Assembly: GCA_965222605.1 (NCBI GenBank) | Contig: OZ244960.1 | Location: forward strand, 480,001 to 544,000 | Reading direction: 5' to 3' | Length of the DNA stretch: 64,000 bases | From: Candidatus Latescibacterota bacterium | GTDB taxonomy: Bacteria > Latescibacterota > UBA2968 | Shown here: positions 4,551 to 16,694 of the stretch, in pieces | Layout of the letters: every line of letters starts with the position of its first letter | Position numbering within the stretch: the first letter of the stretch is position 1 | Notes under the pieces: generated by a model | The model's database searches: none | What the model saw: the letters and a program-made list of their open reading frames with translations, nothing else | What the model was told of the DNA's origin: nothing | Program-made: the position numbers and the translations under genes

Positions 4551-5132
4551 ATGAAATACAAACTCAAAGACATCGCCCTTGTTCAAATGGGCCTCTCCTT
4601 CCGTTCCCGTATTGAGCCGGACACGGATGGGAATGTGGCAGTCATTCAGATGCGTGATCTAACCGAAGATAAATTGAATTATGGCAATCTAATGACCATT
4701 AATATAAACGACATCAATGAACGTCATCTGGTTAAATACAAAGATATGATTTTTCGCTCTCGAGGCAAAACCACTACGGCGACAATCATTGATAAGGAAC
4801 CCGGACGGACGGTTGTCTCGGCCCCGCTATTCTTGATCCGAGTCACAAGCAAAAATGTACTTTCGGATTATCTTTGTTGGTGTATCAACCAATCCTCATC
4901 TCAAGCATTTTTACACAGCAGGGCGACCGGAACGATAATGACCATGATAGGCAAATCGGCTCTCGATGCTTTGGAAATCCCTCTCCCCAATCTGGAAATA
5001 CAGGAGCAAATCGTCACCCTCGCCGATTTGTTAAATAAGGAACAAAGGCTGATGAAAGATTTGGCAGAGCAAAAGGAAAAACTGGTCAAAGCAATTCAGA
5101 TGCAACTGGTAACTGAATCAGAAAAACCTTAA
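4551..5132 (+). CDS. Half-size (single TRD) type I restriction specificity-subunit-like protein
   Basis: KLKDIA start, DMIFRSRG, IPLPNLEIQEQIV followed by a coiled-coil helix; first gene of the hsd operon. Confidence 0.75.
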   Translation: MKYKLKDIALVQMGLSFRSRIEPDTDGNVAVIQMRDLTEDKLNYGNLMTININDINERHLVKYKDMIFRSRGKTTTATIIDKEPGRTVVSAPLFLIRVTSKNVLSDYLCWCINQSSSQAFLHSRATGTIMTMIGKSALDALEIPLPNLEIQEQIVTLADLLNKEQRLMKDLAEQKEKLVKAIQMQLVTESEKP

Positions 5133-5161
5133 ATCACTCCCATAGAATAGGAGTTATTGAC

Positions 5162-5467
5162 ATGACTATTGGAATAGGAGGTTACAGCTTTGAAGGTCCT
5201 CTTGATGATACATCCGATCTTAGAAGCGAATCCGGAGTGTATGCCATTTTAGGGCGGCGCACGATACATCACCTCTGGACGCCTGTTGATATAGGTGCAT
5301 CGGAGGATGTGAAAAAGCGCGTAGAAAATCATGATCGAAAAAGTTGCTGGAAATCGGTAGGTTACCCCTATCAGAGTTACGCGGCTTATTACTGTAATTC
5401 AGATGACCGTACTATTATTGAGACAGAACTGCGGAATCTATATGATCCACCCTGTGGTGATCGTTAA
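5162..5467 (+). CDS. Small GIY-YIG nuclease-like protein
   Basis: GVYAI...DIGASEDVKKRVENH...IETELRNLYDPPC pattern matches a GIY-YIG core; RBS aggag. Confidence 0.6.
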   Translation: MTIGIGGYSFEGPLDDTSDLRSESGVYAILGRRTIHHLWTPVDIGASEDVKKRVENHDRKSCWKSVGYPYQSYAAYYCNSDDRTIIETELRNLYDPPCGDR

Positions 5468-5484: not shown

Positions 5485-6999
5485 ATGAATAATCAAATCC
5501 AACAAAAAGACATCAACAACGCTGCCTGGGCTGCCTGCGATACCTTTCGCGGTGTGATGGACGCAGCCGGATACAAAGATTACATCCTCGTAATGCTGTT
5601 TCTGAAATACATTTCCGATGTCTGGAAAGACCACTATGAGGAATACAAAAAAAGATACGGCGACAACGATGAACGCATCCGACGCAGGCTGGGGAATGAG
5701 CGTTTTGTATTGCCAGATGGCAGTAGCTTTTACAGCCTTTATGAGCAACGCTCGGCTGCCAATATCGGCGAACTCATCAACATCGCGCTGGAAGCGATTG
5801 AAACGGAAAACAAACAGAAACTGGAAGGTGTTTTCCGAAATATAGATTTCAACAGCGAGACAAATCTCGGCAGAACCAGAGACCGCAACCGCCGCCTGAA
5901 AACACTGCTGGAAGATTTCAACAAACCCGAATTAAATATGAGTCCCAGACGGGTTTCAGAGGATGTGATTGGCAACACCTACATCTACCTGATTGAACGT
6001 TTTGCATCTGACGCGGGGAAAAAAGCCGGTGAGTTCTACACGCCACATAAGGTATCCGAACTGGTGGCAAAACTGTGCGCTCCCAAACCCGGCGCCCGTA
6101 TCTGTGACCCCGCCTGTGGGTCTGCGGGTCTTCTTATTGAAGCCGCTCGCGTAGTGGGTGACAAAAACCACGCCCTTTACGGAATGGAAGTGAACGGTAG
6201 CACCTGGGCGTTGGCGCGTATGAATATGTTTCTGAACGGGGCCGATGCAGCCCGCATCGAATGGTGCAACACACTCACTGCCCCGGCGCTGGTGGAAGCT
6301 GACCGGCTGATGAAATTTGACAATGTGGTCGCCAATCCCCCGTTTTCGCTTAATAAGTGGGGCGCGGAAGATGCCGAGGCAGATATATACAACCGCTTCT
6401 GGCGCAGTTTGCCTCCCAAATCCAAGGGCGACTATGCGTTTATCAGCCACATGGTGGAAACGGCTTTGGAAAAACAGGGACGGGTTGCAGTTGTGGTCCC
6501 GCACGGCGTTTTGTTTCGGGGCGGCGCAGAAGGACGCATTCGCCAGCACCTCATTGAAGAAAACTTGCTCGACGCCGTCATTGGCTTGCCGGGCAATCTA
6601 TTCCCCACGACCTCAATACCAGTCGCCATTTTGGTCTTTGACCGCTCGCGTGAACAAGGGGGAGCAAATGAGAACTGCAAAGATGTTTTGTTTATCGATG
6701 CAAGCCGCGAATATCAGGCAGGCAAAAATCAAAACACATTGCTGGACGAGCACATCGAGAAAATCACCACCGCTTATAAAAAACGCCAGGATATGGACAA
6801 ATACGCCCACCTCGCCACCTTTGAAGAAATAGAGGAAAACGACTTCAACTTAAACATTCCTCGCTATGTAGATACCTTTGAAGAAGAGGAGGAGATTGAT
6901 ATTGATGCAGTACAGCTTGAGATAGAGCGATTGGAAGAGGAGTTGAGCGTGGTGCGGGGAGAGATGGGAAGATTAATGGAGGGAGTAAAACGAGCATGA
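5485..6999 (+). CDS. hsdM: Type I RM methyltransferase subunit
   Basis: GEFYTP, DPACGSAG (motif I), NPPF (motif IV, m6A), VPHGVLFRG, FNLNIPRYV. Confidence 0.96.
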   Translation: MNNQIQQKDINNAAWAACDTFRGVMDAAGYKDYILVMLFLKYISDVWKDHYEEYKKRYGDNDERIRRRLGNERFVLPDGSSFYSLYEQRSAANIGELINIALEAIETENKQKLEGVFRNIDFNSETNLGRTRDRNRRLKTLLEDFNKPELNMSPRRVSEDVIGNTYIYLIERFASDAGKKAGEFYTPHKVSELVAKLCAPKPGARICDPACGSAGLLIEAARVVGDKNHALYGMEVNGSTWALARMNMFLNGADAARIEWCNTLTAPALVEADRLMKFDNVVANPPFSLNKWGAEDAEADIYNRFWRSLPPKSKGDYAFISHMVETALEKQGRVAVVVPHGVLFRGGAEGRIRQHLIEENLLDAVIGLPGNLFPTTSIPVAILVFDRSREQGGANENCKDVLFIDASREYQAGKNQNTLLDEHIEKITTAYKKRQDMDKYAHLATFEEIEENDFNLNIPRYVDTFEEEEEIDIDAVQLEIERLEEELSVVRGEMGRLMEGVKRA

Positions 7000-8048
7000 G
7001 CAAGAAATCCTCAAAAGATCTGACGATCCGCAGCAGCACGGCGGAATTTCTGATCTTCACCCGTCAGTCTGGTGAGGGAGGAATTGAGGTTCGCTATGAG
7101 GATGAGACCATCTGGCTGACTCAGAAGTTGATGGCAGAGTTGTTTGAAGTTACCATCCCAACGATTAACGAACATCTGAAAAACATCTTTGCGTCTGGAG
7201 AACTGACTAAAAACGCAACTGTTCGGAATTTCCGAACAGTTCAAAGGGAAGGAAATCGCGACGTAGAACGAGGTCTGGATTTCTACAATCTGGACGCCAT
7301 CATCTCGGTCGGTTATCGGGTAAACTCCAGGCGCGCCACGCAATTCCGCCAATGGGCAACCCGGGTTTTGCGCGAATTTGCGATCAAAGGCTATGTGCTG
7401 GATAAGCAGCGGTTGGAGAATGGCGCATTTCTCGGCGAGGACTATTTTGAGCGGTTGCTGGAAGAAATCCGCGAAATTCGTCTGAGCGAGCGGCGGTTTT
7501 ACCAAAAGATGACCGACATTTACGCCACCAGCATGGATTATAACAGGGATGCGCCGACCACCCGCGAGTTTTTCGCCAGAGTGCAAAACAAGCTGCATTA
7601 CGCCATTCACGGCTATACCGCAGCGGAATTGATCCGACAGCGGGCCGATAGCGGTCAGCGGCACATGGGGCTTGCCACCTGGGAGAAAGCCCCAACCGGC
7701 AAAATCCTGAAGTCTGATGTGTCTGTCGCAAAGAACTACCTGTCGAAAGAAGAACTGGAATCTCTCGGGCGTATCGTCAACGCCTATATTGACCTTGCCG
7801 AAGACCGGGCACAGCGCAAGATACCCATGACAATGGAGGACTGGTCAAAACGGCTCGATATATTTTTTGAGGCTTTTGACCGGCAGATATTGAAAGACAG
7901 CGGACAAGTCAGTGCCGAGATTGCCAAAGCCCATGCCGAAAGCGAGTTTGAGAAATATCGGATTGTTCAGGATCGTTTGTTCGAATCTGATTTTGATAGA
8001 GAAACTAAAGAATTGGAACGACAACTGGGTCGGAAAGATGAGGGGTAA
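6996..8048 (+). CDS. rhuM: RhuM family (virulence RhuM) DNA-binding protein
   Basis: WLTQKLMAELF, YNLDAIISVGYRVNS, IREIRLSERRFYQK, AKNYL; ATGA overlap with hsdM. Confidence 0.9.
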   Translation: MSKKSSKDLTIRSSTAEFLIFTRQSGEGGIEVRYEDETIWLTQKLMAELFEVTIPTINEHLKNIFASGELTKNATVRNFRTVQREGNRDVERGLDFYNLDAIISVGYRVNSRRATQFRQWATRVLREFAIKGYVLDKQRLENGAFLGEDYFERLLEEIREIRLSERRFYQKMTDIYATSMDYNRDAPTTREFFARVQNKLHYAIHGYTAAELIRQRADSGQRHMGLATWEKAPTGKILKSDVSVAKNYLSKEELESLGRIVNAYIDLAEDRAQRKIPMTMEDWSKRLDIFFEAFDRQILKDSGQVSAEIAKAHAESEFEKYRIVQDRLFESDFDRETKELERQLGRKDEG

Positions 8049-8075
8049 AAACGGAGTCCTGCTGTACAACCACAC

Positions 8076-8165
8076 GGTAAATTAGAAAAGGATTCAGTTA
8101 TTTCCATTTTGGAAACAACTGCCCAAGATGGCAAAATTTACCAGACTAAGTATTACAATCTCGAT
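8076..8165 (+). pseudogene. Fragment of a second rhuM-like gene
   Basis: Reads GKLEKDSVISILETTAQDGKIYQTKYYNLD, equivalent to the GELTKNATVRNFRTVQREG...FYNLD segment of RhuM; no start, continues into unrelated sequence. Confidence 0.6.
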
Positions 8166-8171
8166 AAAGAC

Positions 8172-8393
8172 ATGAGCAAGAGACCTTCAGAAAATTCTAC
8201 TGAGATTGTTAGCGAGACCGACACTTCAGATGATCGTGCGAACGGGCTTGTGCAGTTGGTCCAGTCATGGATGGATGAGGGCGATACTGGCGAACAGCGG
8301 GAAACGCTCGAGTACCTCATTCACGCTTTGGATGAAGACCGGCTATCCAGCCGTAAGCTCTTTCCAAAGAAAATGAAAGGAAAGAGTTGGTAG
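8172..8393 (+). CDS. Small hypothetical protein, probable orphan antitoxin-like protein
   Basis: LVQSW...EQRETLEYLIHALDEDRLSSRKLFP resembles small proteins usually encoded upstream of PIN toxins (recalled, not searched). Confidence 0.45.
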   Translation: MSKRPSENSTEIVSETDTSDDRANGLVQLVQSWMDEGDTGEQRETLEYLIHALDEDRLSSRKLFPKKMKGKSW

Positions 8394-8411
8394 CGTGCCT
8401 CCTACACATCC

Positions 8412-8444
8412 GATTGGCTGGAATACAAGGAATCTCAACAATGA
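8412..8444 (+). pseudogene. 3' remnant of a deleted RelE/HigB-type toxin gene
   Basis: Reads DWLEYKESQQ* with ATGA overlap into the antitoxin, mirroring YWQNYKETQR* plus ATGA overlap in the two intact toxins. Confidence 0.55.
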
Positions 8445-8773
8445 GAAAAATGAGAAGGTACCGCGATTTCTTGATTGAAGAACTTGCTGATGCTAAAATT
8501 GAGGAGACCCTCTCCTACCTGCAAGTCTCACTGGAAGAATACCAAAAAGACGGGTATGGCGATGTCCTGTATCTTGCTTATGAGACGGCGATTAAAGCGC
8601 AAGGCGGTGCGCGAGAATTTGCCCGAAAGACGCATAGCAATCCTCAAGACGTGGCGCAGGCGATGTCAAACAAGGACGAGACGCTGATTGCGAACATCAT
8701 CGCCCAACTGCCCGCGACGCAATGCGAGACCTCTGAAATAGAGACCGAGAAATTGCAGACGGTCAAGACCTGA
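8441..8773 (+). CDS. Antitoxin A1, addiction-module antidote (HI1420/HigA-like) with divergent HTH
   Basis: YLQVSLEEYQKDG...AQGGAREFARKT pattern; paralog of 9142-9468. Confidence 0.75.
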   Translation: MRKMRRYRDFLIEELADAKIEETLSYLQVSLEEYQKDGYGDVLYLAYETAIKAQGGAREFARKTHSNPQDVAQAMSNKDETLIANIIAQLPATQCETSEIETEKLQTVKT

Positions 8774-8809
8774 AATTGCGCCATGAGCCAAGCAGAGGGC
8801 AGATAGAGG

Positions 8810-9145
8810 ATGCTTGCTACGCAACCGAGAAAACTGCAAATTTACCAGCATTCAAATGGGCGAGAGCCTTTCACCGAATGGTTTGAGTCACGCGATCAAA
8901 AGACGCGAAGTCGGATCCGAACACGCCTTGGTCGTCTTGAAAGCGGCTATTTTATCGATTGCAAATCTATCGGCGAAGGTATTTTTGAAAGCCGTTTCCA
9001 TTTCGGAGCAGGCTATCGCATATATTTTGGTATAGTCGGCAACACCATCGTCCTGTTGCTCTGCGGCGGCGATAAGTCTTCGCAAACGCGAGACATTGGA
9101 CGCGCAAAAACCTATTGGCAAAATTACAAGGAGACCCAACGATGA
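8810..9145 (+). CDS. Toxin T1, RelE/HigB-like addiction-module killer protein (HI1419 type)
   Basis: GREPFTEW, KSIGEGIFESRFHFGAGYRIYFG, LLLCGGDKSSQ, AKTYW. Confidence 0.9.
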   Translation: MLATQPRKLQIYQHSNGREPFTEWFESRDQKTRSRIRTRLGRLESGYFIDCKSIGEGIFESRFHFGAGYRIYFGIVGNTIVLLLCGGDKSSQTRDIGRAKTYWQNYKETQR

Positions 9146-9468
9146 GAAAAATGAGAAATTATCGCGACTACTTAATCGAAGGGCTTTCTGACTTTGAGGA
9201 GGCCATCTCCTATCTTCAAACGGAATTGGAAGAATACCAAAAAGACGGGAATAGTGCCGCGCTTTATTACGGATTCAGTGCGGCTGTTGAAGGACAAGGC
9301 GGTACGCGAGAATTTGCCCGAAAGACGCATAGCAATCCTCAAGATGTGGCGAATGCCATGTCAAACAAGGACGAGACGCTGATTGCGAACATCATCGCCC
9401 AACTGCCCGCGACGCAATGCGAGACCTCTGAAATAGAGATCGAGAAATTGCGAGTGGTCAAGACCTGA
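9142..9468 (+). CDS. Antitoxin A2, addiction-module antidote
   Basis: ATGA-coupled to T1; paralog of A1. Confidence 0.8.
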   Translation: MRKMRNYRDYLIEGLSDFEEAISYLQTELEEYQKDGNSAALYYGFSAAVEGQGGTREFARKTHSNPQDVANAMSNKDETLIANIIAQLPATQCETSEIEIEKLRVVKT

Positions 9469-9504
9469 AATTGCGCCATGAGCCAGGCAGAGGGCGGATA
9501 GAGG

Positions 9505-9840
9505 ATGCTTGCTACGCAACCGAGGAAACTGCAAATTTACCAGCATCCAAATGGGCGAGTGCCTTTCACTGAATGGTTGGAATCACGCGATCAAAAAACG
9601 CAGGACCGGATTCAAGAACGCCTTACCCGTCTTGCGGGCGGCAATTTTGGCGACTGGAAATCTGTCGGCGAAGGTATTTTTGAAAGCCGTTTCCATTTCG
9701 GAGCAGGCTATCGCATCTATTTTGGCATAGTCGGCAACACCATCGTCCTGCTGCTCTGCGGCGGCGATAAGTCTTCGCAAATGAGAGACATTGAACGCGC
9801 AAAAACCTATTGGCAAAATTACAAGGAAACCCAGCGATGA
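9505..9840 (+). CDS. Toxin T2, RelE/HigB-like addiction-module killer protein
   Basis: Paralog of T1 (16 aa differences in 111 by manual count); RLAGGNFGDWKSVGEG, GGDKSSQ. Confidence 0.9.
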   Translation: MLATQPRKLQIYQHPNGRVPFTEWLESRDQKTQDRIQERLTRLAGGNFGDWKSVGEGIFESRFHFGAGYRIYFGIVGNTIVLLLCGGDKSSQMRDIERAKTYWQNYKETQR

Positions 9841-11306
9841 GACAGATGATAGATTTCAGCGACTACTTAATCGAAAAGTTTTCGGATATCGATAAAGCTC
9901 TCTCCTTCCTTAAAGTCGCATTGGAAGAGTACAAAAAAGATCCGGATGGTGCCGCGCTTTATTACGGATTCAGTGCAGCTGTTGAAGCACAAGGCGGTGT
10001 TCAAAAATTTGCACTGAAAACCCACAGTGCCCCACAAGCCGTATCGGATGCCTTGTTGAGCAAGAATGAGACGCAGATTGCTGAATTACTTAAAAAGCAG
10101 GTATTGGCAAAAAGAGGAGAGGACAAAGATATAGCGCAAAATGGGCCTTTGCCGAAGGGGTGGCGGGAAATAAAGTTGGGGGACTTGTGTTCTGATATTG
10201 CATATGGATATACTGCCACTGCAAGTAACGAACCTATCGGTCCCAAGTTTCTGAGAATTACAGATATTGTTTCAGACAGTATAAATTGGGAAAGCGTCCC
10301 ATATTGTGAAATAGAAGACAGCAAAAAACACAGGTACACATTAGAAACTGGAGATATAGTCATTGCAAGAACAGGGGCAACCACTGGATACAATCAGGTT
10401 GTAAGATCAAATGAGCATTCCGTATTTGCTTCATATCTTATTCGGTACAAATTAAGACAGGATATAGCATATCCATTTTTCATTGGTTGCGTTCTAAAAT
10501 CCACATATTGGAAACGTTTTGTAGAAAGAATCAAAGCCCGTTCTGCACAGCCAGGAGCCAATGCAAAAGATTTTGCAAGTTTCAAGATTCTCTTACCTAC
10601 ATTTTCCGAACAAAAAGCCATTGCGTCTTTACTGGAAAAATGGGACATAGCCATTGAGAAAACCGAAGCACTGATAGAGGCGAAGGAGGAGAGGTTTAAG
10701 TGGTTAATTACCAAATTGATAGCACAAAGTTGCAAGCATTGGAATCATTATAAAGCCAGCGAACTTTTTAAAAACATATCTTGTAAAGGATATCCGGACG
10801 AAGAACTACTATCCGTCACACAAGATAGAGGAGTTATCCCACGCAACATGCTTGAAGGTAGAGTGATGTCCCCTACAAGTGGAACGGATAGTTACAAATT
10901 GGTAGAACCAGGTAACTTTGTTATCAGCCTACGCTCTTTTCAGGGCGGCTTAGAGTATTCAAAATATCGGGGAATCATCAGTCCAGCATACACGGTTTTG
11001 TTGCCTAAGAAAAAAATTAATGATGACTTTTACAGACATTTCTTTAAGACCTATATCTTCGTGGAAAAGTATTTGGCACTGGCAGTTGTCGGTATTCGCG
11101 ACGGTAAGCAGATTAATTTTGAAGCTTTTAAATCTATCAAACTGCCGCTTCCCTCATTGTCAGAACAACAACGCATTGCCAAAATCCTCAACACTGCTCA
11201 ACAAGAAATAAACCTACTCAAACAACTCGCTGACCAATACCGCACACAAAAACGCGGATTGATGCAGAAATTATTAACTGGACAGTGGAGAATGAGCAAT
11301 CAATAA
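9837..11306 (+). CDS. hsdS: Fusion: N-terminal antitoxin (A3) plus type I RM specificity subunit with two TRDs
   Basis: First ~95 aa align with A1/A2 (ALEEYKKD..AALYYGFSAAVEAQGG); from ~10149 LPKGWREIKLGD, FASYLIR, LPTFSEQKAIA, GIISPAY, LPSLSEQQRIA, KRGLMQKLLTG; no stop between the domains. Confidence 0.9.
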   Translation: MRQMIDFSDYLIEKFSDIDKALSFLKVALEEYKKDPDGAALYYGFSAAVEAQGGVQKFALKTHSAPQAVSDALLSKNETQIAELLKKQVLAKRGEDKDIAQNGPLPKGWREIKLGDLCSDIAYGYTATASNEPIGPKFLRITDIVSDSINWESVPYCEIEDSKKHRYTLETGDIVIARTGATTGYNQVVRSNEHSVFASYLIRYKLRQDIAYPFFIGCVLKSTYWKRFVERIKARSAQPGANAKDFASFKILLPTFSEQKAIASLLEKWDIAIEKTEALIEAKEERFKWLITKLIAQSCKHWNHYKASELFKNISCKGYPDEELLSVTQDRGVIPRNMLEGRVMSPTSGTDSYKLVEPGNFVISLRSFQGGLEYSKYRGIISPAYTVLLPKKKINDDFYRHFFKTYIFVEKYLALAVVGIRDGKQINFEAFKSIKLPLPSLSEQQRIAKILNTAQQEINLLKQLADQYRTQKRGLMQKLLTGQWRMSNQ

Positions 11307-11318
11307 AAGGGACATTGT

Positions 11319-11777
11319 ATGAAAACAATTTATGCAATTTATACACTTTTTTTTTATCACCTTTCTCTGATGGGTTTAGGATTATATGTTCGTTTTGGAT
11401 GGTATGATTATGCACTCTGGAAGTTCAATCCTATCTGGTTAGATGTTTCATTATTTGGACTTGCGGGAGGGAGTGTTTACTGCTTACGAGGTCTCTATTT
11501 TCATTATTGTGTTGAGAAAGATTGGGACAATGTTTGGTTCGTATGGCATTTGATCCGTCCATTTGTGAGTACTGTTTGCGGCGCAGTAAGTTTGGTATTT
11601 GTTAAGGCAGGTCTATTGCTGTTCGGAGGGGCCTCAGTCGAAATGCAAAATCACTATGGAGTTTATGCCCTTGCTTTTATAGCAGGATTGAATGTTGACA
11701 ATTTCGTAAAAAAAATAGAGCTAATTTTCAAAGAAACTGTAGGGATTGAACAAACTCGAACATCAGGAGAAAAATAA
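11319..11777 (+). CDS. Hypothetical membrane protein (about 4 TM)
   Basis: Hydrophobic segments with GLAGG...WHLIRPF...AFIAG; AT-rich; lies between hsdS and hsdR. Confidence 0.7.
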   Translation: MKTIYAIYTLFFYHLSLMGLGLYVRFGWYDYALWKFNPIWLDVSLFGLAGGSVYCLRGLYFHYCVEKDWDNVWFVWHLIRPFVSTVCGAVSLVFVKAGLLLFGGASVEMQNHYGVYALAFIAGLNVDNFVKKIELIFKETVGIEQTRTSGEK

Positions 11778-11779
11778 GT

Positions 11780-12664
11780 ATGAGTATTATCAAATCTTTA
11801 TCTGTAGGGAATGGGGATATGTTCTATATCAAACACAATTCAGACAATTTTTCGATAATTGACTGTTGTATGGATGAAGATGATAGAGAAGATATTGTCA
11901 AAGAATTACGGAGAGAGGCCAACGGCAAAAACATCAGAAGATTCATCTCTACGCATCCTGATGATGACCACATTAGAGGGCTTCAATATCTCAATAAGGA
12001 ATGGCCGATATTGAATTTTTACTGCGTAAAGAATGAAACCACAAAGGAAGATGAGACAGATGATTTTGATGAGTACTGTGAATTGAGAGATTCTGATAAG
12101 GCCTTTTACTTAGAAAAAGGCTGTACGCGACGTTGGATGAATCAGTCTAATGAAGAGCGAGGTAGTGCAGGTATTAATATACTTTGGCCTGTCACCAGCA
12201 ATGAGGATTACAAAAACGCCCTTCAAGAGGCGGCACAAGGTAAGAGCCCTAACAACATATCACCGATAATAAAATATTCTCTAAACGATGGAGCCAACGT
12301 ATTGTGGATGGGCGACTTAGAAACTGACTTTATGGAAAAGATTGAAGATAACGTATCGCTTGAAGAAGTTGATATCCTCTTCGCCCCCCACCACGGAAGA
12401 GACAGTGGCAAAGTGCCCAAGTCCTGGTTAGATACATTAAATCCGAAAATTATTGTTATCGGCGAAGCCCCTTCTCAACATCTAAATTACTATCAAGGTT
12501 TTGACACTATAAAACAAAATTCTGCTGGAGATATGGTATTTAAATGCGTTACGAGCGCAGTACATATCTATGTTGAAAATGAATCTTATCAAGAAGATTT
12601 TTTGAACGATGAAAACAAAGGGGACGATTACGATCTGTATTATTTAGGTACTCTAAACTTGTAA
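11780..12664 (+). CDS. ComEC/Rec2-like metallo-beta-lactamase-fold hydrolase
   Basis: SVGNGD, IIDC, STHPDDDHIRG, WMGD, APHHG motifs. Confidence 0.8.
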   Translation: MSIIKSLSVGNGDMFYIKHNSDNFSIIDCCMDEDDREDIVKELRREANGKNIRRFISTHPDDDHIRGLQYLNKEWPILNFYCVKNETTKEDETDDFDEYCELRDSDKAFYLEKGCTRRWMNQSNEERGSAGINILWPVTSNEDYKNALQEAAQGKSPNNISPIIKYSLNDGANVLWMGDLETDFMEKIEDNVSLEEVDILFAPHHGRDSGKVPKSWLDTLNPKIIVIGEAPSQHLNYYQGFDTIKQNSAGDMVFKCVTSAVHIYVENESYQEDFLNDENKGDDYDLYYLGTLNL

Positions 12665-12789: not shown

Positions 12790-15700
12790 ATGCCTACCTT
12801 CCCTTTTAGCGAAAAACATCTTTCCCAGATACCCGCTCTGCAACAGCTAATTAACATGGGCTACCGGTATCTGTCCCCCGATAAGGCGATGGTAGAACGC
12901 GGTGGGCGCGCCTCCAATGTTCTGCTGGAAAACATCTTGCGCGATCAGCTCAAAAAAATAAATCGCATTCGCTACAAAGGCGATGTGTATCTGTTCAGCG
13001 AGGAGAATATTCAATCCGCCATTCAAAAAATGAAAAATGTCCAATACGATGGCTTGCAAAAAACAAACGAAGTGATCTACGACCTGATAACGCTTGGCAC
13101 ATCACTTGAACAAACAATTGAGAGCAATTCCAAAAGTTATACCCTGAACTACATCGACTGGAAAAATCCCGCGAACAATGTTTTTCACGCCACAGCGGAA
13201 TTTTCCGTTGAACGCGCCCGCAGCATGGAAACCGCAAGGCCTGACATTGTATTATTTGTGAACGGCATTCCCCTTGTCGTAATCGAGTGCAAAGGCTCCG
13301 ATGTAGATGTGGATCAAGCCATATCTCAAACAATCCGCAATCAGGGGGAGGAATACATCCCGCGCCTTTTCATTTACGCGCAGATATTGCTGGCTATGAA
13401 CAAAAATGAGGCGAAATACGCAACAGTGGGAACCTCAAAGGCATTTTGGAGCATTTGGGACGAATTAGAGGATTCTGAGGGCGATGTGAATGCCATCATC
13501 AATAAAACCCTTTCTGCAACAGACAAAGACGCCTTGTTCCGCGGCGACTTCGCCCTGGCGCAATCGCACTTTGCCGCGCTTGAAAGCACAGGCAACCGAC
13601 TGATCACGGAACAGGATAGATGTCTTTACAATTTGTGTCGTCCAGAGCGTCTGTTGGAACTCATTTACGGCTTTATCGTCTTTGACCTTGGCATTAAGAA
13701 AATTGCCCGATACCAGCAGTTCTTTCTCGTTCGTTCCGCAATAAATCGCATTAAACAAATAGACAATACAGGACGCCGCCAGGGCGGTATTGTCTGGCAC
13801 ACACAGGGTTCTGGAAAATCCATCACAATGGTTATGCTGGCTCGTACTCTGGCTCTGGATCCAGAACTGAATAACTTCCGAATGATTCTCGTTACAGACC
13901 GCAAAGACCTGGATAAACAACTGGGCAACACCTTCGCTGCTTGTGGTCTGGATATGGAGCGGGCTACAACCGGGCGAAATCTGGTCAAACACATCAAAAA
14001 CAGGGTAGGCATCATCACGACGCTGATCAATAAATTCGACAAAGCACTTTCTGCTGAAAAATACGTTGATGATTCAGCGGATATTGTCGTCCTCGTAGAT
14101 GAAAGCCATCGCACAAACTTCGGTTCTCTTGCAGCACGCATGAGGCAGATGTTGCCAAATGCCTGTTACATCGGCTTTACGGGCACGCCATTGCTCAAAA
14201 GAGAGAAGAACAGTTTTGCCAGATTCGGAGGTCTTATTGAACCGCATTATTCCGTGCGACAGGCGATAAAAGACAAGGCAGTGGTCCCCCTGCTGTACGA
14301 AGGACGGCATGTGGAGATAGAGCAAAACGAAAACGCGGTTGATTTGTGGTTTGAACGCCATACGGCAAACCTGACAGACCAACAAAAAGCCGACTTAAAA
14401 AGAAAATATTCCCGTGCAGATGCACTCAACCAGGCAGACCAGGTCGTCTATATGCGCGCGTTTGACATAAGCGAACACTACCGAGTAAACTGGCAGGACA
14501 CCCCATTTAAGGCGCAACTTGTAGCACCCAACAAGGCGACGGCCCTGAAGTATCGAGAATTTTTCAATGAGATAAATGATGTTTCATCGGAGGTCGTCAT
14601 TTCTCCCCCGGATACGCGAGAGGGGCATGAGGAGGTCGGTGAGGAGACAGATGTGGTCAACGCGTTCTGGAACAAAATGATGGCCCGTTATGGTTCTGAG
14701 GATCAATACAACAAGCAAATCATCGCGCAGTTCAAACACGCGGACGAACCGGAAATTTTGATTGTAGTAGATAAACTCATCACCGGATTTGACGCGCCTC
14801 GCAATACCATACTCTATCTGTGCCGCAAGTTGCGCGAACACACATTGCTCCAGGCTATTGCCCGGGTTAATCGCGTGCACGAAAATAAGGAATTTGGCTA
14901 TGTCGTTGATTATGCCAATGTATTGGGTGAACTGGACAAAGCACTAAACGAATACGACGCGCTTGCGGATTTTGACAGAGAGGACCTCGCAGATGTCCTG
15001 GTCTCCATCCAGGAAGAAATACAAAAATTGCCGCAACGTTACTCAGACCTCTGGGATATATTCAAAGAAATTAAAAATTCCCGCGATGAAGAACGCTACG
15101 AAGTCCTGCTATCCGATGACGCATTGCGGGAGGATTTTTATGAACGCCTCACGGAGTACGGCAAGACTCTCGCCATCGCGCTTTCATCTGAGCAGTTCAT
15201 TATGCAAACCGACGAGGCTCAACTCAAACGCTACAAAAGCGACCTCTCGCGTTTTGTGAAACTGAGAAAGGCGGTCAGACTGCGCTACGCCGAAGCCATT
15301 GATTACGGCGACTATGACTCCCGAATTACAAAGTTGCTAAACACGCATATTCAGGCAAACGAGGTCACCCAATTAAACACCCCCGTGAATATTTTTGATG
15401 ACAATACCTCTTTTATGGTCAGAGAGACGGGGGGCATTTATCGCACCCAAAACACGGCGGCAAGTGCCGACCAGATCGCGCATGCGACCAGGCGTAAGAT
15501 TACCGAAAACATGGATAAAGACCCCGCTTTTTATGAGAAATTCTCAAAACTCATTCAGGAGGCAATCGACGATTTCAGGCAGCAACGGATATTAGCCCTG
15601 GATTATCTGCAAAAGGTGAGCGATATTCGAGATAAGGTCGAAAACACACAACGCGACGATGTCCCCGATGAGATTCGCAATAACAGTGAAGCCTGTGCGT

Positions 15701-15984
15701 ATTTTGGCGCAATTAAACCTTGTTTGTCAAAAATTGATCTGGATGAAAGCCAGACCGATGACATTGCAATAAAAACAACGCTTGCCATTCAAACCGCGAT
15801 AGACAAAAATTGGAAGGTAGATTTTTGGAACGATAGCGACGCGCAAAATACCGTAAAAAACGAGATTGATGATTTCTTTTACGATGTGGTGGAAGACGTA
15901 TATGGCATTGATTTATCGTCGGAACAGATGGACGAAATAATCAGCCAAACCATGAGGATCGCCAAATTCTGGAGGCCCGCTTAA
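12790..15984 (+). CDS. hsdR: Type I RM restriction/motor subunit
   Basis: RPDIVLFVNGIPLVVIECK nuclease motif, HTQGSGKS Walker A, DESH, FTGTP, TGFDAP, QAIARVNR. Confidence 0.96.
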   Translation: MPTFPFSEKHLSQIPALQQLINMGYRYLSPDKAMVERGGRASNVLLENILRDQLKKINRIRYKGDVYLFSEENIQSAIQKMKNVQYDGLQKTNEVIYDLITLGTSLEQTIESNSKSYTLNYIDWKNPANNVFHATAEFSVERARSMETARPDIVLFVNGIPLVVIECKGSDVDVDQAISQTIRNQGEEYIPRLFIYAQILLAMNKNEAKYATVGTSKAFWSIWDELEDSEGDVNAIINKTLSATDKDALFRGDFALAQSHFAALESTGNRLITEQDRCLYNLCRPERLLELIYGFIVFDLGIKKIARYQQFFLVRSAINRIKQIDNTGRRQGGIVWHTQGSGKSITMVMLARTLALDPELNNFRMILVTDRKDLDKQLGNTFAACGLDMERATTGRNLVKHIKNRVGIITTLINKFDKALSAEKYVDDSADIVVLVDESHRTNFGSLAARMRQMLPNACYIGFTGTPLLKREKNSFARFGGLIEPHYSVRQAIKDKAVVPLLYEGRHVEIEQNENAVDLWFERHTANLTDQQKADLKRKYSRADALNQADQVVYMRAFDISEHYRVNWQDTPFKAQLVAPNKATALKYREFFNEINDVSSEVVISPPDTREGHEEVGEETDVVNAFWNKMMARYGSEDQYNKQIIAQFKHADEPEILIVVDKLITGFDAPRNTILYLCRKLREHTLLQAIARVNRVHENKEFGYVVDYANVLGELDKALNEYDALADFDREDLADVLVSIQEEIQKLPQRYSDLWDIFKEIKNSRDEERYEVLLSDDALREDFYERLTEYGKTLAIALSSEQFIMQTDEAQLKRYKSDLSRFVKLRKAVRLRYAEAIDYGDYDSRITKLLNTHIQANEVTQLNTPVNIFDDNTSFMVRETGGIYRTQNTAASADQIAHATRRKITENMDKDPAFYEKFSKLIQEAIDDFRQQRILALDYLQKVSDIRDKVENTQRDDVPDEIRNNSEACAYFGAIKPCLSKIDLDESQTDDIAIKTTLAIQTAIDKNWKVDFWNDSDAQNTVKNEIDDFFYDVVEDVYGIDLSSEQMDEIISQTMRIAKFWRPA

Positions 15985-16694
15985 TGTCGGAAACTCAGCA
16001 CGCCATCACATACGCGGGCAAATCCATTCCCTTTTATCTGAGTTATTCCAACAGGAAATCTATCGAAATTGCCGTTCATCCAGATGGCTTAGTGACTGTA
16101 AAAGCACCACTGGAAACAGATAAAAACCTCATCGAGCGTCGCGTTTACAAACGCGCGCGTTGGATAAGACGCCAGATTCGCTATTTTGCACAGTTTGACC
16201 CGCGAACTCCAGAGCGGCGGTTTGTCGGAGGTGAAAGCCACCTGTACCTGGGCAAAAAGTATCGGCTAAAGATAAGACAGGCAGAAACGGACAAAGTCTT
16301 GCTAAAGCATGGATTTTTTCACATCACAACGGTTAATAACGAGCCAGAACATATCGCTATATTGCTTGAAGAATGGTACCGAAGCAAGGCGAATATTTAT
16401 TTTTTGAAAGTGTTTGAAGAATGCTGGTGTCCCTTTCAGAAAAAAGGGGTGGATAAACCCACCCTTAAAATCCGCAATATGAAAACGCGCTGGGGCAGTT
16501 TGAGCAGAAAAGGCAGCCTGACATTGAATTTGGAACTCATAAAAGCACCCAGAGAATGTATTGAATACGTCGTTATCCACGAGCTATGCCACCTGTTTCA
16601 TCCCAATCACGGGGCAGAGTTTTATAACTTGCTTGAGCGCATGCTCCCCGATTGGATAAAACGAAAGCACAAATTGGAAATGTCACTGTCTTAG
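15984..16694 (+). CDS. YgjP/DUF45-like zinc-dependent hydrolase (M48/SprT-like), commonly found after hsdR
   Basis: MKTRWGS, YVVIHELCHL, NHG; TAATG overlap with hsdR. Confidence 0.85.
   Translation: MSETQHAITYAGKSIPFYLSYSNRKSIEIAVHPDGLVTVKAPLETDKNLIERRVYKRARWIRRQIRYFAQFDPRTPERRFVGGESHLYLGKKYRLKIRQAETDKVLLKHGFFHITTVNNEPEHIAILLEEWYRSKANIYFLKVFEECWCPFQKKGVDKPTLKIRNMKTRWGSLSRKGSLTLNLELIKAPRECIEYVVIHELCHLFHPNHGAEFYNLLERMLPDWIKRKHKLEMSLS

Follow-up and report, generated by a model that had tools for sequence, protein, structure and literature searches.

The window analysed here is a stretch of 64,000 nucleotides from a Candidatus Latescibacterota genome, and our subject is an array of toxin and antitoxin genes inside a type I restriction-modification operon (4.5-16.7 kb of the window, all genes on the + strand). 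The array lies between hsdM with its adjoining RhuM-family gene and hsdS. It consists of a toxin-tail remnant, A1, T1, A2, T2 and the fusion A3::HsdS, repeated with a period of 695 bp. The remnant, T0 (8394..8444), comprises the last 16 codons and the stop codon of a third toxin gene and was recognised from repeat family D3 and by reading the sequence. Its 16 in-frame codons (8394-8441) start right after the stop codon TAG (8391-8393) of a small open reading frame (ORF), read like a toxin C-terminus and end in a stop that overlaps the start of A1 (ATGA); the T1/A2 and T2/A3 junctions are built alike. A1 (8441..8773, 110 amino acids) is a stand-alone antitoxin and the orphan of the deleted T0; its N-half is of the type that other genomes have behind GYFIDCKS-type toxins. 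It is followed by toxin T1 (8810..9145, 111 amino acids), the second stand-alone antitoxin A2 (9142..9468, 108 amino acids, start overlapping the T1 stop in ATGA) and toxin T2 (9505..9840, 111 amino acids). The last ORF (9837..11306) encodes 489 amino acids from its ATG or 498 from an upstream TTG. Residues 1-104 are the A3 antitoxin domain and linker (9837..10148), again with a start overlapping the preceding toxin stop (ATGA). The remainder is HsdS proper (10149..11306), in the same frame as A3 and with two target-recognition domains and conserved helices (PF01420 in two stretches; Specificity_I E 4e-69, residues 105-486). An earlier annotation made without database searches (the sequence-only reading) had described this arrangement, its 695-bp period, its place within a restriction-modification operon and the fusion of A3 to HsdS; ORF positions and direct repeats bore it out, with A3 and HsdS sharing one reading frame in one ORF, 9837-11306.

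Start-to-start spacings of the direct repeats were 695/695 for families D1, D2 and D4 and 701/695 for D3, the latter because A1 has a 6-nt insertion. The longest pair (D1) extends over 300 nt with 93% identity, 8586..8885 versus 9281-9580, far above chance, and forms a homogenised block of antitoxin C-half, 36-nt spacer and toxin N-terminus. Tandem Repeats Finder, with a longest period of 500 and thus below 695, returned no rows for the array. Comparing T1 and T2, 16 of 111 residues differ and 11 of these fall within residues 33-54, exactly as counted in the sequence-only reading; at the DNA level 36 of 336 nucleotides differ. The near identity of the toxin C-half and the intergenic DNA, also noted there, was reproduced: residues 55-111 contain 2 amino-acid differences at 95% DNA identity, and the antitoxin-to-toxin spacers, each of 36 nt, differ at 2 positions. 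The claim that the antitoxins diverge in their N-terminal halves was correct for A1 versus A2 (dN, nonsynonymous substitutions per site, 0.25 in the N-half and 0.04 in the C-half); A3 differs from both over its whole length.

The toxins were assigned by profile and by fold. Using TIGR02683 (RelE/ParE-family toxin, "upstream of HI1419") with its cutoff of 62.85 bits, T1 scored 107.8 bits (E 2.6e-31) and T2 113.3 bits (E 5.3e-33). The Pfam profile PF05973 (gp49) gave 21.0 and 20.3 bits for T1 and T2, below its cutoff of 23.9. An alignment of 64 toxin sequences served for the AlphaFold2 model of T2 and for the definition of invariant columns; all 7 of these (E60, G68, R70, Y72, L83, G87, Q92) are identical in T1 and T2. 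The T2 model (predicted local distance difference test, pLDDT, 91) shows beta-1 at residues 8-11, alpha-1 at 20-26, alpha-2 at 30-44, four strands and alpha-3 at 89-110. Foldseek searches with this model returned as best match the HigB of the Streptococcus pneumoniae HigBA complex (6AF4/6AF3; E 7e-6, TM 0.70-0.75, 24% identity), next HigB1 of Mycobacterium tuberculosis (7NBU/7AWK) and, lower down, generic RelE, YoeB and YafQ toxins. Sequence searches of the PDB were less informative: the 64-row profile reached HigB1 and HigB at E 0.03-0.05 only, and a single toxin sequence or a 9-row profile gave chance-level matches to MglB/DksA. PADLOC contains no model for the toxins or antitoxins of the array. 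Judged by profile scores and predicted fold, T1 and T2 are HigB/gp49-type toxins of the RelE/ParE superfamily with a RelE-type fold, a beta-sheet core plus two N-terminal helices, in agreement with the RelE/HigB identity proposed earlier. For the gp49 family, the available excerpts of PMC11980606 describe ribosome-dependent mRNases and a toxin/antitoxin gene order (PF_gp49).

A profile built from the array antitoxins matched metagenome ORFs at 1e-9 to 1e-23. It retrieved 32 such ORFs, the canonical TIGR02684 (HI1420) antitoxin of the same genome retrieved 59, and many were common to both. In an alignment of 24 antitoxins, 13 from these hsd loci and 11 from elsewhere, the helix-turn-helix layout is collinear and 11 of the 24 reach PF21716. 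By these sequence comparisons the array antitoxins are a diverged branch of the HI1420/PF21716 family of helix-turn-helix type. Antitoxin searches against PDB sequences gave insignificant matches, namely designed tetratricopeptide repeat (TPR) proteins at E 1.8-8 and, with the profile, HipB at E 0.07. Helices 2 and 3 of the antitoxin N-half (window 9142-9300) are TPR-like in appearance; the designed-TPR matches were not significant, and some long repeat proteins occur among the weak matches of the A3 domain. A dispersed paralogue in the same genome (L003:1492-2333, about 5.746 Mb) encodes a toxin 68% identical to T2. The protein encoded downstream of that toxin has the N-half in common with the antitoxins and continues with a TPR motif and an acidic tail. 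Since the N-half alone is common to this paralogue and to many database matches with other C-termini, it appears to behave as a portable toxin-binding module.

Of 168 genomes of the phylum, 18 contain the same hsd locus (E <=1e-15); they belong to three genera of two families. Eighteen loci, the window included, were mapped. At least one intact toxin is present in 8 loci; the other 10 carry antitoxins in its absence. At least two antitoxin copies occur in 8 loci, the window and seven others, and two toxins in 2, the window and G029. Antitoxins equal or outnumber toxins in all 18 loci and are more numerous in 14. In unfused loci (toxin-antitoxin)n comes first, then the small ORF and then hsdS; in fused loci the small ORF precedes the array, which leads into the fusion. 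This variation in copy number, order and toxin presence marks the locus as a hot spot where genes are gained, lost and rearranged.

The units of the array follow from the gene order of related modules. The labels of the sequence-only reading suggest cassettes of an antitoxin and the toxin behind it; the opposite order was found. All 3 dispersed paralogues of the same genome have the toxin upstream and the antitoxin after it, and in 80 metagenome loci with toxin relatives an antitoxin came next after the toxin, on its strand, in 60 and lay upstream in none, consistent with the order given in the excerpts of PMC11980606. Not one of these 80 loci is tandem or lies close to hsd genes. In the window, ATGA overlaps occur at every toxin/antitoxin junction (3 of 3, including 9142 and 9837), compared to 36-nt gaps from antitoxin to toxin. 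Family order and overlaps together define the units T0(deleted)-A1, T1-A2 and T2-A3::HsdS. In two related loci (G144, G014) the small ORF is followed by an intact toxin and an antitoxin. The ancestor of the window array probably contained three complete units.

Where the variable residues lie was read from the T2 model. Residues 33, 34, 37, 38, 41, 44 and 45 are located on alpha-2 (30-44, with 45 just beyond its end), and their spacing suggests one helix face; of the positions in between, R39, L40 and R42 are invariant in nine close toxins and L43 varies in one. Residues 47, 49 and 51 belong to the alpha-2/beta-2 loop or its end; residue 54 is part of beta-2. In the S. pneumoniae HigBA complex (6AF4), according to the accessible part of PMC7984235, HigB and HigA each contribute their alpha-1 and alpha-2 to the interface, which in HigA make up the N-half; the helix-turn-helix lies more C-terminal. 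The variable patches, toxin alpha-2 plus loop and the antitoxin N-terminal helices, are thus plausibly the toxin-antitoxin interface. The sequence-only reading had proposed either this or a phage-sensing surface for its variable segments; homology to 6AF4 and the T2 model place the patches on elements that form the interface in 6AF4.

Toxin and antitoxin types were drawn by eye among genomes that are kin. Three toxin types were distinguished at the alpha-2 end and loop (GYFIDCKS, GGNFGDWKS and a form of GGNFGD with a valine in front) and three antitoxin N-half types at the third helix (DVLYLAYETAIK, AALYYGFSAAVE and AALHLA-like). In these related genomes the toxin type agrees with that of the downstream antitoxin N-half in 9 of 10 pairs and with the upstream antitoxin in 3 of 6, counts that favour the interface reading short of proving it. 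T1 combines a type-1 loop with an alpha-2 face of its own, and A1, a type-1 antitoxin, is located just upstream; each toxin of the window therefore has an antitoxin of the same type within the operon.

The fusion proved to be more than a peculiarity of the window. The HsdS encoded here carries a 104-residue N-terminal extension instead of beginning at the first target-recognition domain, and all PADLOC type I specificity profiles start matching at about residue 105. A search with the first 100 residues of A3 identified 31 protein clusters of 363-507 amino acids, all with PF01420 and with N-domains 70-99% identical to A3. Aligning 15 of the fusions showed antitoxin C-half and linker almost invariant, the two target-recognition domains freely swapped and the N-half varying in blocks. 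Among the 31, the fused N-half is of type 2 in 28, of type 3 in 1, of type 1 in 1 and truncated in 1. In unfused relatives HsdS starts nine residues ahead of the common QNGPLPKGW-type entry, and their ATG corresponds to GAT in the fusion; the linker can still be recognised as the old hsdS 5' leader, purine-rich stretch included. As a result, hsdS in the fusion has no start codon of its own, and no canonical internal start is available. Over antitoxin C-half and linker, the ratio of nonsynonymous to synonymous substitution rates (dN/dS) among three species was 0.09-0.26, indicating purifying selection on the fused domain and linker. Searching 1.84 billion representative proteins with the A3 domain yielded 84 matches at E <=0.001 with only 2 fusions of HsdS length among them, which marks the fusion as a narrow, lineage-specific invention; several others match in the N-half only, on different C-termini. 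Among the 18 mapped loci, 4 genomes bear the fusion (window, G012, G022, G143), and intact toxins precede it in the window only. An AlphaFold2 model of the whole fusion (15-row alignment) reached a mean pLDDT of 47, a low confidence at which only the helix count of the N-domain was used. Full-text literature searches returned no description of an antitoxin-HsdS fusion.

The age of the variable segments was compared with that of their surroundings. Between T1 and T2, residues 33-54 showed a dS (synonymous substitutions per site) of 0.51 and a dN/dS of 0.75, the flanks a dS of 0.18-0.23 and a dN/dS of 0.09-0.18. Between A1 and A2, dS was 1.15 in the N-half (dN/dS 0.22) and 0.08-0.09 in the C-half (dN/dS 0.44). 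Ten toxins from eight genomes were then clustered by DNA. For residues 33-54 they group by type across species, T2 being 94% identical to the toxin of G020, 89% to toxin Tb of G029 and 68% to T1. The flanks group within a genome, with 94-95% identity between T1 and T2 and 91-96% between the two toxins of G029. A patch dS above that of the flanks, dN/dS below 1 and types common to several species mean that the types are older than the present copies and the flanks young. Read from these substitution patterns, the mosaic is one of long-lived types shuffled into a backbone homogenised by gene conversion. The 300-nt near-identical block probably serves as a substrate for gene conversion and for unequal crossing-over, the latter in 695-bp steps.

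The explanation we favour, and hold to be fairly probable, sees the locus as three toxin-then-antitoxin units of a single type II family, arrayed within a type I operon and shuffled by recombination, with A3 as the N-terminal domain of HsdS. By analogy to their family, the toxins would act as ribosome-dependent mRNases, and each would be neutralised by the N-terminal helices of the matching antitoxin, as homology and co-occurrence suggest. The variable patches would set partner specificity and fall into at least three long-lived classes, which homologous recombination would pass between copies and between species; recombination may also carry interface types onto HsdS. Gene conversion would keep the blocks of antitoxin C-half, spacer and toxin ends alike, and unequal crossing-over between them would gain or lose 695-bp units. 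Presumably the units are transcribed with the hsd operon and serve as a stabilising or abortive-infection add-on to restriction, like other toxin-antitoxin pairs in type I loci. The fusion itself may have arisen when a deletion joined the last antitoxin helix to the hsdS leader, and would now tether one antitoxin to the methylase/restriction complex.

We are aware that a number of observations weigh against this explanation. In the window, T1-A2 is the sole discordant one of the 10 toxin-antitoxin pairs, and the concordance of the other 9 may reflect linkage, not function, because the classes were drawn by eye and the genomes are kin. Covariation analysis of 72 toxin-antitoxin pairs gave a maximum corrected mutual information of 0.44 versus 0.33 +/- 0.04 in 20 shuffles; no clear interface signal emerged from these pairs, and ragged N-termini dominated the top-ranking ones. 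A hint in the same data of coupling between toxin residues 38/42 and antitoxin residues 34-35 was discarded as unreliable. T1-type toxins carry I at the near-invariant G49 (glycine in at least 90% of the family), which makes their activity less certain. A1, A2 and the A3 domain remained below every curated Pfam and NCBIfam threshold, even with E values up to 10 in Pfam. Three of the 4 fusion-bearing genomes, and 10 of the 18 loci, lack an intact toxin, and the toxin-less fusion genomes imply that toxin neutralisation alone cannot keep the fused domain. Finally, neutralisation and the specificity classes are what we infer from homology and co-occurrence alone.

A bolder extension, which we regard as improbable, would make the restriction complex the keeper of an mRNA-cutting toxin. 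T2, or any type-2 toxin, would be parked on the enzyme via A3, and loss or blocking of HsdS would free it and stall the cell. Its release might be triggered by a phage anti-restriction protein, by proteolysis or when the hsd locus is lost. An ordinary type II pair would thereby provide a second line of defence like PrrC, and the tandem units would be spare specificities that could be moved onto HsdS.

Among the competing explanations, the units might be decaying selfish relics: the gap between hsdM and hsdS would be a recombination hot spot that gathers toxin-antitoxin modules, these would erode their toxins first, and the fusion would be a tolerated accident. The deletion of T0 in the window, the 10 toxin-less loci and the 14 of 18 loci with surplus antitoxins fit such decay, as do the RhuM-family gene, the small antitoxin-like ORF and the MBL pair that come and go at the same locus. 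In G022 (L037:7540-9223) an antitoxin of the array is split by about 1.7 kb containing an opposite-strand ORF of 452 amino acids that looks transposase-like by eye. However, T1 and T2 are full length, retain all invariant residues and show a dN/dS of 0.09-0.18 outside the patch. The fused domain and linker are likewise constrained (0.09-0.26) and have stayed in frame in 31 clusters despite the exchange of target-recognition domains. We therefore consider relics of this kind unlikely.

That the specificities were generated by duplication and diversification was the view of the sequence-only reading. In the corresponding model a single cassette would have been duplicated in place, and positive selection would then have diversified the interface into new insulated specificities within the array. 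The concentration of T1-T2 differences in one 22-residue patch fits this history, and so do a dN/dS of 0.75 in the patch, the highest of the gene (flanks 0.09-0.18), and the position of the patch at the likely interface. Nevertheless, dN/dS between copies exceeded 1 in no segment and was 0.22-0.75 in the variable ones. Furthermore, synonymous divergence in the patch is roughly threefold that in the flanks (0.51 versus 0.18) and the antitoxin N-half dS exceeds that of the C-half even more clearly (1.15 versus 0.08-0.09). Other species contain these patch types at 89-94% DNA identity, which makes the types older than the present copies. In-place diversification is accordingly very unlikely in our judgement, and this part of the earlier interpretation was abandoned in favour of shuffled, long-lived types.

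Equally small is the chance we give to a collection of antitoxins kept as immunity (anti-addiction) against homologous toxins arriving with phages, plasmids or recombining hsd alleles, with the toxins of secondary importance. Antitoxins in excess of toxins at 14 of 18 loci, several N-half types side by side, and fused N-halves that are of type 2 in 28 of 31 proteins yet once each of type 1 and type 3 would agree with such a role. On the other side, no incoming element with these toxins was found, the 80 metagenome relatives being ordinary two-gene modules away from hsd genes, and the argument in its favour consists entirely of counts among related genomes.

An assembly artefact, in which the assembler laid strain variants of one cassette in tandem, is hardly credible: the genome is metagenome-assembled, public runs hold related variants and alternative joints and none of their contigs spans the array, but the source genome is a single 6.34-Mb contig, seven further related genomes, each assembled independently, also have two antitoxin copies at this locus, G020 has the same order as the window (A2-type, toxin, A3-type), and in the best-matching public run the copy-specific segments all occur as 0-mismatch contigs at a similar depth of 36-55. 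The public-run data comprise short contigs from 4 of 24 listed runs (X1, X3, X7, X8) over window positions 7900-10400. The alternative joints among them include 8490 to 9890-9897, with 3-10 other letters, and 8044 to 8732. They most likely represent alleles of related organisms and not rearrangement within the strain, and would place the different arrangements side by side in the same samples.

The operon that contains the array has the following gene order: a half-size hsdS-like gene, a 101-amino-acid ORF, hsdM, the RhuM-family gene, the small ORF, the array, hsdS, a 152-amino-acid ORF with an MBL-fold (metallo-beta-lactamase) gene, hsdR and a YgjP-like peptidase gene. GC content is about 0.50-0.53 in the flanks and 0.37-0.47 inside the locus, and no tRNA genes were found in the first 30 kb of the window. 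The half-size hsdS-like gene upstream of hsdM (4551..5132, 193 amino acids) contains one target-recognition domain (PF01420 E 3e-10; PADLOC Specificity_I E 3e-25), has a tblastn match in 15 of the 18 mapped loci and might provide a second, symmetric specificity for the same methylase. The 101-amino-acid ORF behind it (window 4551-5467 region) is present in 7 of these 15 loci. Both hsdM (5485..6999; PF02384 E 2e-101, PF12161 E 4e-28), for the methyltransferase subunit, and hsdR (12790..15984; PF18766, PF04313, PF22679), for the restriction/translocase subunit, are full length. The RhuM-family gene (6996..8048) overlaps the hsdM stop and matches PF13310 (E 2e-110) and the PADLOC candidate defence family PDC-S05 (E 3.5e-158); in related loci it is full length, truncated or absent.

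The small ORF in front of the array (8172..8393) is the 73-amino-acid conserved form of a 94-amino-acid ORF (8109-8393), with 110 homologues. No Pfam, NCBIfam or PADLOC match was obtained for it. Its module of about 50 residues resembles an antitoxin-type C-terminal part and in relatives sits after a ParD-type ribbon-helix-helix domain or an HI1420 antitoxin N-half; from these comparisons the small ORF looks like an antitoxin tail devoid of a DNA-binding domain. Where it was found in unfused related loci, it lies between array and hsdS; in G013, G028 and G023 it immediately precedes hsdS. An assignment of 8109-8170 as a RhuM fragment was not confirmed, as Pfam gave no match.

A second embedded cassette (11319..12664), between hsdS and hsdR, consists of the 152-amino-acid ORF, for which no family match was found, and the MBL-fold protein (PADLOC candidate PDC-M48B E 9e-151, PF00753). 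The MBL-fold protein is 100% identical in G022, compared to only 96% for the adjacent HsdR, which suggests a recent exchange of the cassette. The gene for the YgjP-like metallopeptidase (15984..16694; PF01863 E 6e-58) is the conserved 3' neighbour of hsdR and adjoins it in related loci. Promoter-like sites numbered 12 versus 13.6 expected from shuffled sequence and terminator-like sites 10 versus 8.9. With both at the level of shuffled sequence, no unit was marked as a separate transcription unit, itself weak evidence, and no operator was identified at the array. In RNA runs, 0.05-0.10 of the sampled words were present.

Toxin-antitoxin pairs in restriction operons are known; communication between the two systems mostly is not. 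The locus offers a natural experiment in partner specificity, with several interface types in one operon that were exchanged while the rest of the unit remained identical, and a handful of natural alleles could test how paralogous pairs avoid cross-talk. If the fusion does tether a toxin to the enzyme, it would represent a simple and transferable coupling of abortive infection to restriction failure. If it is inert, the locus would still show clearly how concerted evolution and unequal crossing-over have shaped a defence island, and this in a phylum that has received little study.

Among characterised systems, the closest are HigBA of S. pneumoniae (6AF3/6AF4), HigB1 of M. tuberculosis (7NBU/7AWK) and the families PF05973/TIGR02683 and PF21716/TIGR02684. 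They share with the window the RelE-type fold with two N-terminal helices, the toxin-first order with the antitoxin start overlapping the toxin stop, and antitoxins in which N-terminal helices precede a helix-turn-helix. In contrast, the window toxins are 20-24% identical to the solved toxins and its antitoxins fall below all curated profile thresholds. Its units stand in tandem within an hsd operon, where one of the antitoxins is part of HsdS, and the array is known from sequence alone. Studies of paralogous ParD-ParE pairs, as far as the available sections of PMC7669267 and PMC10160972 go, proposed that few interface residues insulate paralogous pairs, and the same may apply here; those studies dealt with dispersed paralogues and mutational libraries, whereas the window holds a natural tandem array with interface types exchanged by recombination.

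The setting resembles that of two other loci, each described here from excerpts of its source: the DarTG2 pair embedded in the hsd island of enteropathogenic Escherichia coli (PMC12255303) and tvrAT, homologues of Phd-Doc, in the pneumococcal tvr locus (PMC6265443). In each a type II module lies between hsd genes, presumably co-transcribed, in a rearrangement hot spot. The window differs by a RelE-fold toxin instead of DarT or Doc, by a tandem array instead of a single pair and by the absence of a recombinase gene from the locus; an antitoxin covalently joined to HsdS does not appear in the excerpts of the two papers. PrrC, an anticodon nuclease that the type Ic enzyme EcoprrI keeps latent (from the parts of PMC1484252 available), also is an RNA-cutting toxin encoded within a type I hsd locus, and silencing by contact with the enzyme followed by phage-triggered release would in principle be possible for the window toxin too. 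PrrC, however, is an ABC-ATPase/anticodon nuclease that binds the enzyme itself, whereas T1 and T2 are RelE-fold proteins of 111 amino acids that would be connected by way of the antitoxin part of the fused HsdS, and the toxin is absent from 3 of the 4 fusion-bearing genomes. Toxin-antitoxin modules in type I loci were thus known before; what is new, as far as our searches show, is the tandem array of exchangeable interface types together with the conserved antitoxin-HsdS fusion.

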